Assembly: GCA_018400015.1 (NCBI GenBank)
Contig: JAGYNB010000001.1
Span: 328,321-392,320, forward strand
Direction: 5' to 3'
Length of the DNA stretch: 64,000 bases
Source: Candidatus Omnitrophota bacterium
GTDB lineage: Bacteria; Omnitrophota; Gorgyraeia; Gygaellales; Gygaellaceae
Shown here: piece after piece, positions 4,404 to 10,964 of the stretch
Layout of the letters: every line of letters begins with the position of its first letter
Numbering within the stretch: position 1 is the first letter of the stretch
Notes under the pieces: model-generated
The model's input: only the letters and a program-made list of their open reading frames with translations
What the model was told of the DNA's origin: nothing
Database searches by the model: none
Position numbers and translations under genes: made by a program

Positions 4404-5285
4404 TTAGTGCTTTGGTTCTAGATGTATTACTACATCGGTTACGCCAACAAGACGGTTTTTAATCAGTATTTCGATTTGGTTGCTGATTTCGTGGGCTTTT
4501 TCTATCGGCATTGCCGGCTCAACCTGGACATGCAAGTCAAGGTTGATATCGTCTTCTCTTCCTCTGGAGCGAATTTTATGACAGCTTATTACTCCTTTTA
4601 CCGACAGGACTATATCTGATATTTCTTTAGTGTTCTTTATTGGTTGAGTATCGCATAAAATAGCGGAGCTAGATCTTGCTATTTTTATGCCGCTGTAGGC
4701 AATAAAAATAGATATAAGTATTGCGACTATAGGATCGATTATGGGAAATCCCAGTTTTGTAAAAATCAGAGCAACAAATACAGAACCTGTAGTTAAAAGG
4801 TCGGCTTTTGTGTGTATGGCGTCTGCTTTTAAAATATCGCTTTTTAATAACCGGCCTTGTTTGAGCTCGTATTTGACCACGAATATATTTACGACAAAGG
4901 TAGCTAACATAACGACAAAGCTTAATAAACTTATGCTAGGTGTAATAGGGTTTTTAAGTTGGGGTATAGATACTCTTAACAGATTAAAGGCAATCACAAA
5001 CAAAACGAGAGATATAAAAAAAGAAAAAAGGGTTTCGTATTTTTTATGGCCGTAGGGGTGTTCTGCGTCCTTAGGTTGTGAGGCAATATGAATTCCAATA
5101 AGGGCAATTATATTGGATGTGCCGTCAGATAAAGAATGGAATCCGTCCGCGGTAATGCTATGGCTTGTGATTAAAAGACCATAAACGATTTTAACTGCAG
5201 CTACAGCCCAATTAAGAGCAAGAATCGCGATCAGTACCTTTTTTATTTTAGCGAAACGCTGGAATCCTGTTGTGGGTATATGCAT
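4404..5285 (-). CDS. Cation diffusion facilitator (CDF) family metal efflux transporter
   Basis: Six predicted TM helices; HSLSDG metal-binding motif in TM2 and a HxxxD-like motif in TM5; C-terminal cytoplasmic domain. Confidence 0.75.
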   Translation of the reverse strand: MHIPTTGFQRFAKIKKVLIAILALNWAVAAVKIVYGLLITSHSITADGFHSLSDGTSNIIALIGIHIASQPKDAEHPYGHKKYETLFSFFISLVLFVIAFNLLRVSIPQLKNPITPSISLLSFVVMLATFVVNIFVVKYELKQGRLLKSDILKADAIHTKADLLTTGSVFVALIFTKLGFPIIDPIVAILISIFIAYSGIKIARSSSAILCDTQPIKNTKEISDIVLSVKGVISCHKIRSRGREDDINLDLHVQVEPAMPIEKAHEISNQIEILIKNRLVGVTDVVIHLEPKH

Positions 5286-5373
5286 AAAACTTATTATACT
5301 CTCAAAGAAAAATTATTGCAATTTTTGATATTTCCTTTGATAATTCTGTTATTTATTATAAAATGTACTAGCT

Positions 5374-5766
5374 ATGGATAAATTCTTTATTGAAAAAAAG
5401 ATCTATTACCACGATACGGATTGCGGTAAGGTAGTTTATTATGCAAATTATCTAAAATATCTGGAAGAAGCAAGGACGGAGTTTTTCTTATCCCGCGGCA
5501 TAGAATTAAAAAAATTAGCGCAAGAAGGGATACTTTTTGTAGTTGCTAAAGTTGATATTGATTATAAGGTTTCAGCCAGATATCAGGATGTTTTACGTAT
5601 CTACTGCGAAGTGGCAAGCGTGAAAAAGGTGGCTATCGAGTTTGTTAACACCATTAAAAGGGATTCTACAGTTATTTCTCAGGCAACAGTCGTGCTTGTT
5701 TGCGTGGGTGTAGACTTTAAACCAAGGTCATTGCCTGAAGATATCAAGCAACTTTTATTGTCGTGA
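5374..5766 (+). CDS. Acyl-CoA thioesterase, YbgC/4HBT hot-dog family
   Basis: 130 aa, YYHDTD...VYYANY N-terminus typical of YbgC/FcoT 4HBT thioesterases. Confidence 0.7.
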   Translation: MDKFFIEKKIYYHDTDCGKVVYYANYLKYLEEARTEFFLSRGIELKKLAQEGILFVVAKVDIDYKVSARYQDVLRIYCEVASVKKVAIEFVNTIKRDSTVISQATVVLVCVGVDFKPRSLPEDIKQLLLS

Positions 5767-6092
5767 GAATTTGGGATATTCCCCCTTCAAAGTTATGCCG
5801 GCAGCATCTTTTAGGTGAGCATCGCGAGCTACATGCGATATGGAGTATCCTTATTAATTCAAAAAAAGGATATTCGCGTCATCCAGAGGTTTTAAGGTGG
5901 AGAGGCAAACTAAAAGCATTGTATGCAAGACATCAGGCGCTTTGTGCAGAATTGGCCAAAAGAGGTTATAATCATAAAAGCCCCCTAGATAAGAAAAAGG
6001 CAAAAGGAAATAGTTCTCAGGATAAGTTAATAGATTCAATAAGAAAACAAAAGTATATTTTGAAGAAAAAACAGTGTAATTGCAGGGTTTAA
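5763..6092 (+). CDS. Pyrimidine dimer DNA glycosylase (T4 endonuclease V / Pyr_excise)-like small protein
   Basis: N-terminus RIWDIPPSKLCRQHLLGEHRELHAI resembles the T4 endoV N-terminus (TRINL..LADQHLMAEYRELPRV, quoted from memory), including the catalytic-Glu context. GTG start overlapping the upstream stop (GTGA). Confidence 0.45.
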   Translation: MRIWDIPPSKLCRQHLLGEHRELHAIWSILINSKKGYSRHPEVLRWRGKLKALYARHQALCAELAKRGYNHKSPLDKKKAKGNSSQDKLIDSIRKQKYILKKKQCNCRV

Positions 6093-6093
6093 A

Positions 6094-6864
6094 ATGCATA
6101 GGATATTATTTGAAATAGGAAACTTTAAGGTTTATAGCTACGGATTTATGATCGCTTTGGGTTTTGTTGTTGCGTTATTGTTTTCAGTCAGGGAAGCGAA
6201 ATCCAGGGGTTTAAATATTTCTTTGCTGCAGGATTTGTTTTTTTGGATTGTTTTAATTGGTTTTTTTGGAGCGCGCATAGTTTATATTTTGACCCAATGG
6301 CAGTATTTTATAGTCCATCCGTTTGAATTATTGTTGTCAAAAGGCGGTTTTGTTTTTTATGGCGGTTTTATATTCGGGCTTATAGCGGCAATGATATTTT
6401 TAAAAGTTAAGCGCGTTGCTTTTTATCCTATCGCTGATATCATCATGCCTTATTTGGCGCTAGCGCATGCTTTTGGCAGGGTGGGGTGCTTTCTAAACGG
6501 CTGTTGTTATGGTGTGCCCACTCAGGCTTTTTACGGAGTTAGGTTCCCGGCTGATTGTGCTGCCGGTCAGATTGCCGGAAGGTTAATCCCTACGCAGCTT
6601 ATATCAGCCAGCGCACTTTTAATAATATTTTTGGTTCTTGTGGCAATAAAGAAAAAGACAAATATTCAGGGCCTGGTTTTTTGGTTTTATGTTTTTCTTT
6701 ATTCTTTGACAAGATTTTTAATTGAATTTATCCGTTATGACTACCGCGGCAATATTGGAATTTTCTCTATTTCCCAGGTATTTGCCATTTGTTTTACAGG
6801 GATTTCGCTGTTTATGATACTAAGGCTTAAAAAGATTACAAAAAATCCTTCTAATAATGTATAA
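6094..6864 (+). CDS. lgt: Prolipoprotein diacylglyceryl transferase
   Basis: Polytopic membrane protein with Lgt-like GFFGARIVY and YGGFIFG motifs and a conserved G-rich loop (HAFGRVGCFLNGCCYG). Confidence 0.7.
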   Translation: MHRILFEIGNFKVYSYGFMIALGFVVALLFSVREAKSRGLNISLLQDLFFWIVLIGFFGARIVYILTQWQYFIVHPFELLLSKGGFVFYGGFIFGLIAAMIFLKVKRVAFYPIADIIMPYLALAHAFGRVGCFLNGCCYGVPTQAFYGVRFPADCAAGQIAGRLIPTQLISASALLIIFLVLVAIKKKTNIQGLVFWFYVFLYSLTRFLIEFIRYDYRGNIGIFSISQVFAICFTGISLFMILRLKKITKNPSNNV

Positions 6865-6873
6865 TGACTTATT

Positions 6874-7347
6874 ATGAAACTACTGGAAATTAAGAAATAT
6901 CCGGATAAGATTCTTAAAAAAACCTGTGAAGACATAGTTGAAGTTACGGAAAAAGAACTAAAGTTGTTTGATAGTATGCTTTATACAATGAAGCATTTTT
7001 ACGGCATTGGTTTAGCCGGTCCGCAGGTGGGAATTTTAAAGAATATAATTGTTGTTGATATCGGTGAAGGGCCGGTAAAATTAATTAATCCAAAGGTTGT
7101 TGCTTTAAATGGCAGCGGTGTTATGAAAGAAGGTTGTCTGAGCGTTCCTGGAGTGGACGTGGAAGTTGAACGCGCCTATAAAATTACCGTATTGGGAGTA
7201 AATGAAAAGGGAAATGATGTTGAACTTAAGGTAAGGGGTTTACTGGCTAGAGTTTTATTGCATGAGATTGACCATTTAAGAGGCAAAACAATAGTAGATT
7301 ATATGCAGTTTTTTGATAAGATGAAGTTTAATTTAAAGGGAAGATGA
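6874..7347 (+). CDS. def: Peptide deformylase
   Basis: The three PDF motifs: GIGLAGPQVG, EGCLSVPG, HEIDHLRG. Confidence 0.9.
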   Translation: MKLLEIKKYPDKILKKTCEDIVEVTEKELKLFDSMLYTMKHFYGIGLAGPQVGILKNIIVVDIGEGPVKLINPKVVALNGSGVMKEGCLSVPGVDVEVERAYKITVLGVNEKGNDVELKVRGLLARVLLHEIDHLRGKTIVDYMQFFDKMKFNLKGR

Positions 7348-7348
7348 T

Positions 7349-7561
7349 ATGAGCGAGTGCAAAATAGAACAGAATAAAAAGTATTGTAATTGCAGTTATG
7401 ATTCCTGCGGTAAAAAAGGCATATGCTGCGATTGTCTGCATTATCATAGAAAACAAGGGCAAATGCCTGCGTGTTTTTTCCCCGATGATATTGAAAAAGC
7501 ATATGACCGCTCAATTGATAAATTTATTGAAGTGTATAATGAAAGAGGCGCGTGGTGGTAG
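7349..7561 (+). CDS. Small cysteine-rich protein of unknown function (70 aa)
   Basis: ORF with RBS, wedged between def and trxB (2-nt gap, 10-nt overlap). Motif C-x-C-x4-C-x5-CC-x-C-x2-HYH; no family recognised. Confidence 0.4.
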   Translation: MSECKIEQNKKYCNCSYDSCGKKGICCDCLHYHRKQGQMPACFFPDDIEKAYDRSIDKFIEVYNERGAWW

Positions 7562-8517
7562 ACGGTAATCAGCTGTATGATTTATTGATTATTGGTGCTG
7601 GTCCTGCGGGTTTGACTGCTGCAATATATGCTGGGCGTTCAAGGCTGAATACGCTTGTTTTTGAGTCTGCGTCTAATTTAAGTCAGGCTATGCTTACAGA
7701 CGATATTGAAAATTACCCTGGTTTTCCCGAGGGTATTACTGGAATGGAGTTGGTTGAAAAATTTAAAACTCAGGCGAAGAATTTTTCAGCTAAGATAATG
7801 AGCAAGGAAGTAAAAAAAATCGAACAGGCCGATCTTGAAGGCAAGAAAGTATGGGCTGTTTATACCGATGACGGGCAAGTTTTTAAGAGCCTGTCCGTCA
7901 TTATCGCAACTGGCGCAAAGCCGAAACAGCTTGGCGTTGATGGGGAAAATCTTTTACGCGGTAAGGGTGTTTCGTATTGTGCAACTTGCGATGCTGCTTT
8001 TTTTAAAAATAAGAAAGTCGTTGTTGTCGGAGGTGGAGATACGGCTATTGAAGAGGCGCTTTTTCTCACGCGTTTTGCCAGTGAAGTTGTTGTTGTGCAC
8101 AGAAGGAATAAACTTCGCGCTACAAAGATCCTGCAGGAAAGAGCATTGGAGAATAAAAAGATAAGTTTTTTGTGGGAATCCAATCTAGTATCCATAGAAG
8201 GAAAGCAGAAAGTAGAAGGTGTGATTTGTGAAAATGTAAATACAAAACAAAAAAGCTCGTGTAAATGCGACGGGGTTTTTATATTTGTTGGCTATGAGCC
8301 AAATACATCTTTTTTAAAAGCCTTGCTTAATGCCGACGACTCAGGTTATCTTATCGTTAATAAAAAGCTAGAAACGTCATCTAAGGGTATCTTCGCCTGC
8401 GGAGACTGTTGCCAGAAGCACTTAAAACAGGTTATAACTGCCTGCGCCGAAGGTGCGTTGGCATATCACTATAGCTTTTCATATATTAATGAAGTCAAAG
8501 GGATTGTTTATAAATAA
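7552..8517 (+). CDS. trxB: Thioredoxin-disulfide reductase
   Basis: GAGPAG FAD motif, redox-active CATCD disulfide, NADPH motif GGGDTA; GTG start. Confidence 0.9.
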   Translation: MVVDGNQLYDLLIIGAGPAGLTAAIYAGRSRLNTLVFESASNLSQAMLTDDIENYPGFPEGITGMELVEKFKTQAKNFSAKIMSKEVKKIEQADLEGKKVWAVYTDDGQVFKSLSVIIATGAKPKQLGVDGENLLRGKGVSYCATCDAAFFKNKKVVVVGGGDTAIEEALFLTRFASEVVVVHRRNKLRATKILQERALENKKISFLWESNLVSIEGKQKVEGVICENVNTKQKSSCKCDGVFIFVGYEPNTSFLKALLNADDSGYLIVNKKLETSSKGIFACGDCCQKHLKQVITACAEGALAYHYSFSYINEVKGIVYK

Positions 8518-8541
8518 ATCAACTCGAGAAAGGAGTTACTC

Positions 8542-8859
8542 ATGGAGATTGAAATAAGAGAGGATAATTTTAAAACAGAGGTGTTGGAGTCTAAAATCCC
8601 TTGTTTGGTGGATTTTTGGGCCGAGTGGTGCGGGCCTTGTAAAATGATCGCACCTTCTTTAAAAGAAATTGCTCAAGAGTATAAAGATAAGATCAAGGTT
8701 TGTAAAATAAATATTGATGAAGCTTCTTCTATCGCCAGTAGCTATGGTATAATGAGCATACCTACGTTAATGGTTTTTAAGGATGGATCGGTGCAAAATA
8801 GCGCAGTAGGTGCTTTGCCAAAATCAGACATAGTCTCCTTGATAAAGTCTTATGTATAA
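8542..8859 (+). CDS. trxA: Thioredoxin
   Basis: WCGPCK active site; 105 aa. Confidence 0.9.
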   Translation: MEIEIREDNFKTEVLESKIPCLVDFWAEWCGPCKMIAPSLKEIAQEYKDKIKVCKINIDEASSIASSYGIMSIPTLMVFKDGSVQNSAVGALPKSDIVSLIKSYV

Positions 8860-8906
8860 ATTAGTTGTAATAGTTTCTTTTATTATGATATAATTGAAAA
8901 GTCAAA

Positions 8907-9974
8907 ATGGAAAACCAAGGCAAAATATTAGTTGTTGATGACGAGGAAGTTATAAGAAGTCTTTTAAAAGACGCTCTTACAGACTTAGGATATGAGGTCA
9001 CTACCTGTCCTAACGGTCAAAGCGGTATAAAAGAGGGGACATCAAATAGTTTTGATACGGTCATAACCGATATTCGACTTCCTGATATCGACGGGATACA
9101 CCTGTTGGGTGAAATAAAAAAAGCAGACCCCGAAGCTGTAGTTATTGTAGTTACCGGGTATCCGTCTTTTGACAGCGTTCGCGATGCCTTAAAGTTAGGT
9201 GCTCACGATTATCTTACCAAGCCTTTTAATATCGATGAGATTACTTTTACCATAAAAAAAGCCGTGCTTTTCCGTCAGACTTTAAAAAGGAACAAAGAAT
9301 TGGTTGAAGAGCTTGAAAGAAAAAACATGCTTTTAGAGCAGCAGAATGCGATACTTGAGGTAAGGGTAAAGGAACGTACTGCAAATCTGCAGAAGCTCTA
9401 TAGCGACTTAAGAAAAACATATATAGATACGATTAAGGCTTTTGCCGACGCCTTAGACGCTAAGGATCATTATACGAGAAGTCACTCTGAAAATGTTACC
9501 CGTATTGCAGTAAAGATTGCAGAACAGCTGGGTCTATCTTCCAATGAGATAGAAGATATAAGAGAAGCAGCACAATTGCACGATTTGGGAAAAATCGGAA
9601 TTGATGATGTGGTTTTAAGAAAGCCGGGTAAGCTCAACGATGAAGAGTGGGAGAAGATAAAAAGCCATCCCTTAAAAGGTGCTCAGATTTTGGAGCATTT
9701 AGGGTATTTAAAGAACATAACCGAGATTATAAAACAGCATCATGAAAAATATGACGGAACGGGTTATCCAGTTGGCTTAAAAGGGACAGAAATCAAACTT
9801 GGGGCAAGGATTGTTTCTTTGGCTGATTCTTTCGAGGCGATGACATCAGAGAGACCATACAGAAAAACTCCTTTAAAAAAAGAAGAAGCAATCAATGAAA
9901 TAAAGAAGAATTCCGGCACCCAATTCGACCCGATGATTGTTGAAACCTTCCTTAAGATAGTAGATAAATTTTAA
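8907..9974 (+). CDS. Response regulator with HD-GYP domain (c-di-GMP phosphodiesterase, RpfG-like)
   Basis: N-terminal REC domain (VVDDEE...D); C-terminal HD..HDLGK and HHEKYDGTGYP (HD-GYP) motifs. Confidence 0.8.
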   Translation: MENQGKILVVDDEEVIRSLLKDALTDLGYEVTTCPNGQSGIKEGTSNSFDTVITDIRLPDIDGIHLLGEIKKADPEAVVIVVTGYPSFDSVRDALKLGAHDYLTKPFNIDEITFTIKKAVLFRQTLKRNKELVEELERKNMLLEQQNAILEVRVKERTANLQKLYSDLRKTYIDTIKAFADALDAKDHYTRSHSENVTRIAVKIAEQLGLSSNEIEDIREAAQLHDLGKIGIDDVVLRKPGKLNDEEWEKIKSHPLKGAQILEHLGYLKNITEIIKQHHEKYDGTGYPVGLKGTEIKLGARIVSLADSFEAMTSERPYRKTPLKKEEAINEIKKNSGTQFDPMIVETFLKIVDKF

Positions 9975-9995
9975 CAGATAAAACCCTCTATTTAC

Positions 9996-10964
9996 GTGCG
10001 TAACAATATTTTATTTATTACTCTCAGTAATATCGGAGACGCAATGCTTGCTCTTCCTGTGTTGGATATTTTAAAAGATAAATATCCTGACTCTAGAATT
10101 ACAGTCTTGGCAAGTGAACGTTCAGAAGTTATTTTTAATAATGATCCTTCATTAGAGAGAGTTATAATATACAATAAAGCCTGTTCGTTAGCTGAAAAGT
10201 TCAAGCTTATAAAAGATTTAAGAAAAGATTATTTTGACTTAATTGTTGATTTGCGTAACAGCGCATTCCCAATTTTGTTGCGTGCTAAAAGAAAAACCAC
10301 TCCCTTAGATCATATTTTAAAAAAGAATAGACATATAACTAATTGGCATATTGCTAAATTGCGCAGGATTATCAAAGAGATTAATTTTAATGCCAAAAGG
10401 CAAAGTTTTTATGTCGATAAAGATTCAAGCAGGTTTATTATGGATAAGTTACAAGAGTTAGGGATAAAAGATGGTTCATTTGTAGCTTTGGCTGTAGGTG
10501 CGAGAAGTTATTTAAAATGCTGGGATAAAGATAAATTCTTGGTTTTATGCAGGAGGATTATTGAAGAACTTAATTTAGATCTGGTTTTAATAGGCGATGC
10601 TAAAGATAAGCCTGTTTGCGATTATATTCAGGGTAGTTTAAAAAGAAAAGTTTTTAATTTAACTGGCCAGACCACGTTAAAACAACTTGCTGCTCTTTTA
10701 TTAAAATCAAAATTACTTATTGCTAATGATAGCGGTATTATTCATTTGGCGAGTTATTTGAATGTACCTATTTTAGGTCTATACGGGCCCACGGACTACA
10801 AAAAATACGGCCCTTGGTCTGTAACAAATATTGTTGCAAGAATAAATTTGGACTGTGCACCTTGTGAAAAGGCCCATTGCAGATTTGACGAAGTTAAATG
10901 TTTAACCAGGTTGGACAGCGATTTCGTATTTGGTAAACTTAATAATTTAATTAATGAATTATAA
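9996..10964 (+). CDS. Glycosyltransferase family 9 (LPS heptosyltransferase)
   Basis: GT9 N-terminus LFITLSNIGDAMLALPVL; 322 aa; GTG start; sits in the LPS core cluster. Confidence 0.7.
   Translation: MRNNILFITLSNIGDAMLALPVLDILKDKYPDSRITVLASERSEVIFNNDPSLERVIIYNKACSLAEKFKLIKDLRKDYFDLIVDLRNSAFPILLRAKRKTTPLDHILKKNRHITNWHIAKLRRIIKEINFNAKRQSFYVDKDSSRFIMDKLQELGIKDGSFVALAVGARSYLKCWDKDKFLVLCRRIIEELNLDLVLIGDAKDKPVCDYIQGSLKRKVFNLTGQTTLKQLAALLLKSKLLIANDSGIIHLASYLNVPILGLYGPTDYKKYGPWSVTNIVARINLDCAPCEKAHCRFDEVKCLTRLDSDFVFGKLNNLINEL

Follow-up and report, generated by a model that had tools for sequence, protein, structure and literature searches.

A small Cys-rich ORF lies between the peptide deformylase and thioredoxin reductase genes of a Candidatus Omnitrophota genome, and its position raises the question of whether its product is dedicated to the thioredoxin system or serves another process. 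A first-pass annotation of the window, by which we mean the whole 64,000-nt stretch of DNA analyzed here, had placed the ORF at 7349-7561 among def, trxB and trxA, and both the coordinates and the profile scores confirmed this arrangement.

The ORF almost certainly encodes a DUF6485 family protein

The ORF extends on the + strand from the ATG at 7349 to the TAG at 7561, and its 70-aa, Cys8His-type product is MSECKIEQNKKYCNCSYDSCGKKGICCDCLHYHRKQGQMPACFFPDDIEKAYDRSIDKFIEVYNERGAWW. The first-pass annotation could not place this product in a known family. However, the protein matches PF20095 (DUF6485) at 38.9 bits over residues 8-65 (gathering cut-off, 24 bits; E = 1.3e-09), and it shares with this family the length, the stand-alone architecture and every invariant Cys/His position, with no difference. 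DUF6485 is a catalogued but uncharacterized family, of which the window ORF is an additional member. PF20095 has no solved structure, and our literature searches returned no mention of DUF6485 or PF20095, nothing for ‘Gygaella obscura’ and nothing for Omnitrophota together with thioredoxin reductase. No NCBIfam family matched the ORF, and Rfam gave no match over window positions 5000-10000.

Among 5.8 billion proteins, a word-indexed search returned 45 close homologs (57-84% identity, E = 1e-20 to 1e-38), all carrying PF20095, and the best of these (84% identical) is named by NCBI ‘DUF6485 family protein [Candidatus Gygaella obscura]’, from an Omnitrophota genus; 43 of 46 diverse relatives matched PF20095 as well. 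When 1.84 billion representatives were searched exhaustively with a profile, 414 clusters (50% identity level) were obtained, and the best 150 of these representatives are all small proteins (≤136 aa). The homologs are stand-alone proteins of 63-70 aa found in hundreds of genomes, and the family as a whole is compact, with members of 60-70 aa. Longer members result from miscalled upstream starts with an internal M-E/D-C start inside, from read-through and from one truncated tandem duplicate, and domain fusions, which we sought among them as a clue to function, were not found. The duplicate, P0046 (128 aa), has two DUF6485 domains in tandem, the second truncated, and is the sole multi-copy case among the best 150 representatives.

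In a scan with one genome per species, DUF6485 relatives were present in at least 598 species. The best 80 of these fall into about 17 phylum-level groups, including Bacteroidota, Chloroflexota, Aminicenantes, Planctomycetota, Omnitrophota, Nitrospirota, Elusimicrobiota and Thermoplasmatota archaea, and the carriers are mostly metagenome-assembled genomes of anaerobic bacterial lineages, plus the Thermoplasmatota. The Thermoplasmatota-type proteins are 72-78% identical to that of the window while those of other Omnitrophota are 63-71% identical, which suggests, from sequence similarity, either inter-domain transfer or extreme constraint. A gene order of PolX, NAD-dependent LigA and DUF6485 was seen at loci L002, L009, L055, L063, L086-L088 and L091-L092, which are labeled Thermoplasmatota or are metagenome contigs of the same order, with MobB on the opposite strand where genes were called.

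These relatives make it vanishingly improbable that 7349-7561 is no gene at all, that is, a chance ORF or a frame-shifted N-terminus of trxB: at least 598 species keep it as a stand-alone protein of equal length, its Pfam score exceeds the threshold, and trxB homologs begin at the same point without the ORF. Moreover, the window is collinear over 6 kb with the ortholog locus L081 (77.5% nucleotide identity), and the ORF codons of the two differ by 26 synonymous and 11 non-synonymous changes, an excess of synonymous changes that indicates purifying selection on the gene. As neither a lack of conservation nor a frameshifted trxB was found, the ORF stands, and we regard it as almost certainly a real gene for a conserved Cys-rich mini-protein, as first proposed, rather than an N-terminal extension of trxB. 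Two antisense ORFs of 71 aa (7299-7514, - strand) and 44 aa (7328-7462, - strand) overlap the gene; both are probably spurious because it is the + strand frame that is conserved, with the synonymous excess.

Nine invariant ligand-type residues and a predicted four-helix fold

The 68 full-length DUF6485 members compared, that of the window among them, share nine residues without exception, namely C4, C13, C15, C20, C26, C27, C29, H33 and C42, and the invariant Cys/His positions recur in sets of 38 close and 46 diverse sequences. The cysteines are therefore conserved as anticipated, and the pattern originally read from the sequence is correct as far as it goes; it had missed C4, so that the protein has eight cysteines instead of seven. 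The HYH motif noted at the same time is conserved at its second His (H33), whereas the first His is variable. The ligand spacing is C-x8/9-C-x-C-x3/4-C-x5-CC-x-C-x3-H-x8/9-C, and of 195 sequences retrieved, 139 contain the Cys/His motif; its x5 and x3 spacers are set by the search pattern itself, and the others vary by one residue. Outside the ligand-type positions, conservation among the 68 members reaches at least 90% at N9, G24, P40, F44, R54, S55 and F59.

The AlphaFold model, computed from the 68-sequence alignment (mean pLDDT 94, pTM 0.78), consists of four short helices at residues 6-10, 26-35, 46-49 and 56-66. Searches of the PDB sequences with the single protein and with the profile gave nothing at E ≤ 10; the predicted fold is confident and has no PDB counterpart. 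The protein has no hydrophobic N-terminal leader. With nine invariant residues of the ligand type inside a stretch of 39, in a cytoplasmic protein carried mostly by anaerobes, metal binding appears more likely than structural disulfides, and DUF6485 is probably a small metal-binding protein.

Comparison with known Cys-rich metal-binding proteins

We compared DUF6485 with two kinds of metal-thiolate proteins. First, CXC/Tesmin-TSO1 (CRC) domains such as LIN54 have Zn3Cys9 chemistry. The nine ligand-type residues of DUF6485 equal the number required for a trinuclear Zn cluster of the CXC type, and its CNC[ST]x3-4C...C[DE]C[LF] pattern resembles CNCTKSLCLKLYCDCF of LIN54 (sequence checked against PDB 5FD3). 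However, the remaining ligands of DUF6485 are placed differently and one of them is a His. An hhalign comparison with the two LIN54 repeats, for which the template was thin, gave a probability of 1.2%, and none of 46 DUF6485 members matched the TCR/CXC Pfam family (PF03638) at E ≤ 10. Membership in the CXC/Tesmin family was rejected on these two results, and the likeness would be at most a resemblance in chemistry.

Second, bacterial metallothioneins (SmtA/BmtA, Zn4Cys9His2) are small cytoplasmic proteins in which CxC/CC motifs and His residues wrap a metal-thiolate cluster. DUF6485 is likewise small and cytoplasmic and has CxC/CC motifs and a His. None of the 46 members matched a metallothionein Pfam family at E ≤ 10, and DUF6485 was the only family matched by the window protein at E ≤ 1. 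In contrast to metallothioneins, DUF6485 has a conserved, helical, non-Cys C-terminal half and very high identity across phyla, and both features suggest that it serves a specific partner instead of buffering metal in bulk.

The gene is packed into a block of unrelated genes

The gene sits in a tightly packed run of same-strand genes. Upstream, def (6874-7347, + strand) scores 132.8 bits against TIGR00079 (cut-off, 103.95) and E = 6.7e-43 against PF01327, contains EGCLS and HEIDH in its translation, and ends 1 nt before the DUF6485 ATG. A purine-rich AAGGGAAG at 7336-7343 (+ strand), within the 3’ end of def, is the likely ribosome-binding site of the DUF6485 gene. Downstream, trxB (ending at 8517, + strand) scores 388 bits against TIGR01292 (cut-off, 343.45) and contains CATC, GGGDTA and HRRNKLR, by which its product is classed as a low-Mr NADPH-dependent thioredoxin reductase. 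It may start at GTG 7552 or at the in-frame GTG 7555, and its overlap with the DUF6485 gene is then 10 or 7 nt, respectively. The start at 7555 appears more likely because its spacing from the AGAGG at 7544-7548 is better and because the ortholog has its start called at this codon; the 10-nt overlap first given for this junction therefore holds only for the start at 7552. In either case the packing is tight enough for translational coupling, in keeping with the proposed co-translation with trxB. The next gene, trxA (8542-8859, + strand; TIGR01068 130.1 bits vs. 96.8; PF00085 E = 2.7e-34), encodes a thioredoxin with WCGPC.

The whole block from 5374 to 8859 is probably one operon, to judge from the tight packing. 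Its genes are, in order, a 4HBT thioesterase, Pyr_excise (pyrimidine-dimer glycosylase), lgt, def, DUF6485, trxB and trxA (Pfam labels taken from the collinear ortholog locus L081), with gaps of -4, 1, 9, 1, -10/-7 and 24 nt. Promoter-like sites are present at 5337-5364 and 8865-8894, and the + strand between them has no terminator-like site. Because the block packs unrelated housekeeping genes in this manner, the overlap of the DUF6485 gene with its neighbor is weak evidence of shared function. The stringing together of unrelated genes at such gaps also fits a different account of the locus, in which DUF6485 is a housekeeping metal-binding protein with no tie to trxB and its position results from genome compaction and inherited PVC synteny.

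Two further genes flank the block. Directly 3’ of trxA, a gene for a response regulator whose output domain is of the HD-GYP type (HD_5/HD; 8907-9974) has its own promoter-like site (8865-8894) and adjoins trxA in L081 as well. About 2 kb upstream of the DUF6485 gene lies a cation-diffusion-facilitator gene (Cation_efflux/ZT_dimer, labeled via L081; 4404-5285, - strand). A similar cation-efflux gene, fused to Nitro_FeMo-Co, is present in an Aminicenantes locus (L008:4606-5820), 3’ of a radical-SAM gene and followed by DUF6125. Such genes near DUF6485 may be a coincidence or a hint of metal handling.

Linkage to thioredoxin reductase is rare and confined to PVC-type lineages

The first-pass annotation had suggested a dedicated partner or substrate of thioredoxin reductase and a neighborhood check of whether homologs are always linked to trxB. 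They are not. Using the window Def, TrxB and TrxA in tblastn searches of 80 species-level loci, we located trxB no more than 5 kb from DUF6485 at a single locus (L011) and def at none, and the single trxA-like match nearby was weak (26% identity over 80 residues). The 66 same-strand genes within 130 nt of DUF6485 represent 107 different Pfam families, and thioredoxin is absent from the 25 of these families that were listed. The commonest neighbors are lineage-specific: Thermoplasmatota have an NAD-dependent DNA ligase there, Dehalococcoidia an RNase PH and Bacteroidales a peptidase C1. The other Omnitrophota do not keep the arrangement either: the next-closest DUF6485 protein (71% identical) is encoded between metH and mnmG, and at L051 the gene follows a radical-SAM gene only. 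All of these observations are as expected for a gene that neighbors trxB incidentally.

A reverse scan of the 80 best TrxB relatives in metagenomes gave a more nuanced picture. DUF6485 was near three of them, with 76%, 56% and 53% identity, which all rank among the four TrxBs closest to that of the window; the remaining close TrxBs (52-62% identical) are on contigs too short to show whether DUF6485 is nearby. Every TrxB at least 52% identical to that of the window and with enough flanking DNA had DUF6485 nearby, while none at 51% identity or below did. The proximity occurs in three gene orders, all from PVC-type lineages (Omnitrophota and Planctomycetia-type contigs). The order def-DUF6485-trxB-trxA is shared by the window, L081 and L093. 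In the Omnitrophica genome L173, the order is EIIA, radical SAM, trxB and DUF6485, with 19 nt between the last two. In L094 and L096 (identical to L011), a permease/EIIA gene is followed by radical SAM, trxB, a ThiI-like PP-loop ATPase with an NFACT-R_2 (DUF814) domain, and DUF6485; this radical SAM-to-DUF6485 module lies at L011:2314-5204, L096:2237-5130, L094:2-2949 and L097:2186-4239, and the ThiI-like proteins of the two species (L011/L096 and L094) are 59% identical. Iron genes flank the ThiI-containing module, FeoB in L011 and a DtxR/FeoA-type repressor in L094.

The linked TrxBs are genuine NADPH thioredoxin reductases, since all keep CA[TV]C, GGGDTA/GGGNTA and HRRxxxR; those of the L173 and L011 types are 53-55% identical to that of the window. 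Persistence of the proximity in three gene orders down to this divergence speaks against a purely incidental neighbor, and it exceeds chance, for which we estimate about 0.3 loci for a single-copy gene. Meanwhile, the three arrangements could all derive from a single ancestral one, in which case they would not count as independent evidence. The recurrence of trxB adjacency in two further PVC orders makes a functional tie of DUF6485 to thiol-disulfide chemistry plausible in this clade, but a functional link to thioredoxin reductase itself is, in our assessment, doubtful.

The dedicated-partner proposal, in which DUF6485 would receive electrons from TrxB directly or via TrxA and act as a redox relay or a Zn-thiolate switch, draws on the overlap of the DUF6485 stop with the trxB start in both the window and its ortholog, on the short trxB-to-DUF6485 gap in L173, on the absence of an adjacent trxA in L173 or the L011 module, and on the canonical nature of all the linked NADPH enzymes. 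Against it, about 95% of the examined family members lack the linkage, and the Gygaella trxB is already followed by a canonical trxA. A thioredoxin fold, or a CxxC in a thioredoxin-like context, was rejected as well: no thioredoxin-family match was obtained in Pfam (46 members, E ≤ 10) or NCBIfam (window ORF), and the modeled four short helices are not thioredoxin-like. Within the thioredoxin system, DUF6485 is thus neither a universal nor a dedicated component, and the proposal in its original form is distinctly improbable; what survives of it is the recurrent adjacency within the PVC orders.

The ThiI-containing module invites a comparison with sulfur transfer. ThiI+DUF814 is a predicted alternative tRNA 4-thiouridine synthase, and small sulfur-carrier genes of the TusA type are found in such positions of ThiI+DUF814 systems (Burroughs & Aravind 2014, PMC4075521); that study mentions no thioredoxin or thioredoxin reductase, radical SAM or cysteine-rich protein. 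DUF6485 lies immediately downstream of the ThiI+NFACT-R_2 gene in L011, L096 and L094, but it is not TusA-like, and only one lineage shows this association. The trxB of the Planctomycetia-type module may serve the ThiI-like thiouridine synthase (PMC4075521) rather than DUF6485.

A radical-SAM family recurs beside DUF6485 across phyla

When 666 flanking ORFs were clustered by BLAST, the sole cross-phylum neighbor of DUF6485 was an uncharacterized radical-SAM family, and the rest was lineage-specific synteny. A member lies within 5 kb of DUF6485 at 11 of the 80 species-level loci (same strand at 10, within 30 nt at 5), with varying gene order, in Aminicenantes (6/8), Planctomycetota (3/6), Omnitrophota and Sumerlaeota; L173 and L174 also have one. 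By our estimate, a single-copy gene would occur this close by chance at about 0.3 loci. The genes include L008:3680-4603, L015:4204-4989, L051:950-1738, L053:5216-6163, L076:5722-6648, L173:275-1054 and L174:3187-3999, among others. The encoded enzymes carry an N-terminal YGPVPSRRLGxSLGVD motif and occur in two forms, a short one and a long one with a winged-helix-like C-terminal tail. Neither an NCBIfam equivalog nor a PDB relative was found for the family, and the 64-kb window contains no copy of it. At about 85% of the loci, both trxB and the radical-SAM gene are absent from the 5 kb on either side of DUF6485. A functional link of DUF6485 to the radical-SAM enzyme is a tentative conclusion, held at somewhat less than even odds.

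Other neighbors, namely LigA/PolX, a YprB-like exonuclease, Tag, NUDIX, MnmG, QueE and RNase PH, did not occur near DUF6485 above what the density of housekeeping genes would give, and we do not propose a DNA-repair or tRNA-modification theme for them.

SCIFF/ranthipeptide precursors are Cys-rich small ORFs as well, and DUF6485, which is small, Cys-rich and directly beside a radical-SAM gene in several phyla, might by analogy be a substrate peptide that the enzyme cross-links or modifies. Unlike those precursors, DUF6485 is conserved over its full length, including cross-domain identity of up to 74-78%, and has a confident globular model with no division into leader and core; with the entire chain conserved and confidently folded, it is an unlikely RiPP-like substrate. 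Furthermore, the radical-SAM gene is adjacent in only about 14% of the loci and is not nearby in about 85%. The only conserved cysteines of the enzyme are those of the CxxxCxxC triad, so that there is no sign of SPASM/twitch-type auxiliary clusters, and its scores against SPASM families are far below the cut-offs. We therefore rejected membership among SCIFF-like RiPPs, on the 11/80 loci and the lack of auxiliary Fe-S cysteines, and consider a substrate role very unlikely.

Proposed role of DUF6485

Taking these results together, we favor the view, with a probability of roughly 0.45, that DUF6485 is a metal-thiolate accessory protein of a radical-SAM/thiol-redox process and not a dedicated component of the thioredoxin system. 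The nine ligand-type residues would hold a polynuclear metal center that builds the N-terminal half of the protein. This center would be of the Fe-S kind or else a Zn-thiolate cluster, the latter as Zn3(Cys/His)9 or as 2xZn, and the working surface would be the conserved C-terminal patch P40-A-C-x-F-P-x-D-x-E-K-x-Y-D-R-S ... F59. This stand-alone cytoplasmic mini-protein may then assist a process catalyzed by the YGPVPSRRLGxSLGVD radical-SAM enzyme, as a metal or sulfur carrier, an electron carrier or a redox-sensitive partner. In PVC bacteria, the NADPH thioredoxin reductase would have been recruited to the DUF6485/radical-SAM module, where it plausibly keeps the thiols of DUF6485 or of its reaction partners reduced, and in the genus Gygaella only the DUF6485-trxB pair of this module would still be together.

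The main rival to the accessory-protein reading is incidental synteny, which is quite possible. It accounts for the scarcity of trxB and def near DUF6485 (1/80 and 0/80 loci within 5 kb), for the diversity of the adjacent genes and for the packing of the 5374-8859 block; the persistence of the trxB proximity above the chance expectation is what it explains poorly. A more specific form of the accessory role, in which DUF6485 would be a new-fold Zn3-type or Fe-S protein and an obligate radical-SAM partner, acting as a sulfur or metal donor or an electron relay, regenerated by thioredoxin reductase in PVC bacteria and perhaps engaged in tRNA thiolation or modification, is rather improbable as a whole. 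The ThiI+DUF814 neighbor is a hint of its tRNA element.

Significance

The window ORF alone is an ordinary family member, and nothing about DUF6485 is mechanistically surprising yet. The family is nevertheless an unusually clean target for function discovery, also because our searches returned no literature on it. The window protein has 70 residues and is 74-78% identical to Thermoplasmatota archaeal proteins, and the family combines nine invariant residues of the metal-ligand type, a confident predicted fold without a PDB match, a reproducible genomic link to an uncharacterized radical-SAM enzyme and, in PVC bacteria, to a canonical thioredoxin reductase. Learning the ligand and the enzyme of DUF6485 could reveal a new small metalloprotein fold. 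It could also bring to light an accessory factor so far missing from radical-SAM or sulfur-transfer chemistry in anaerobes.
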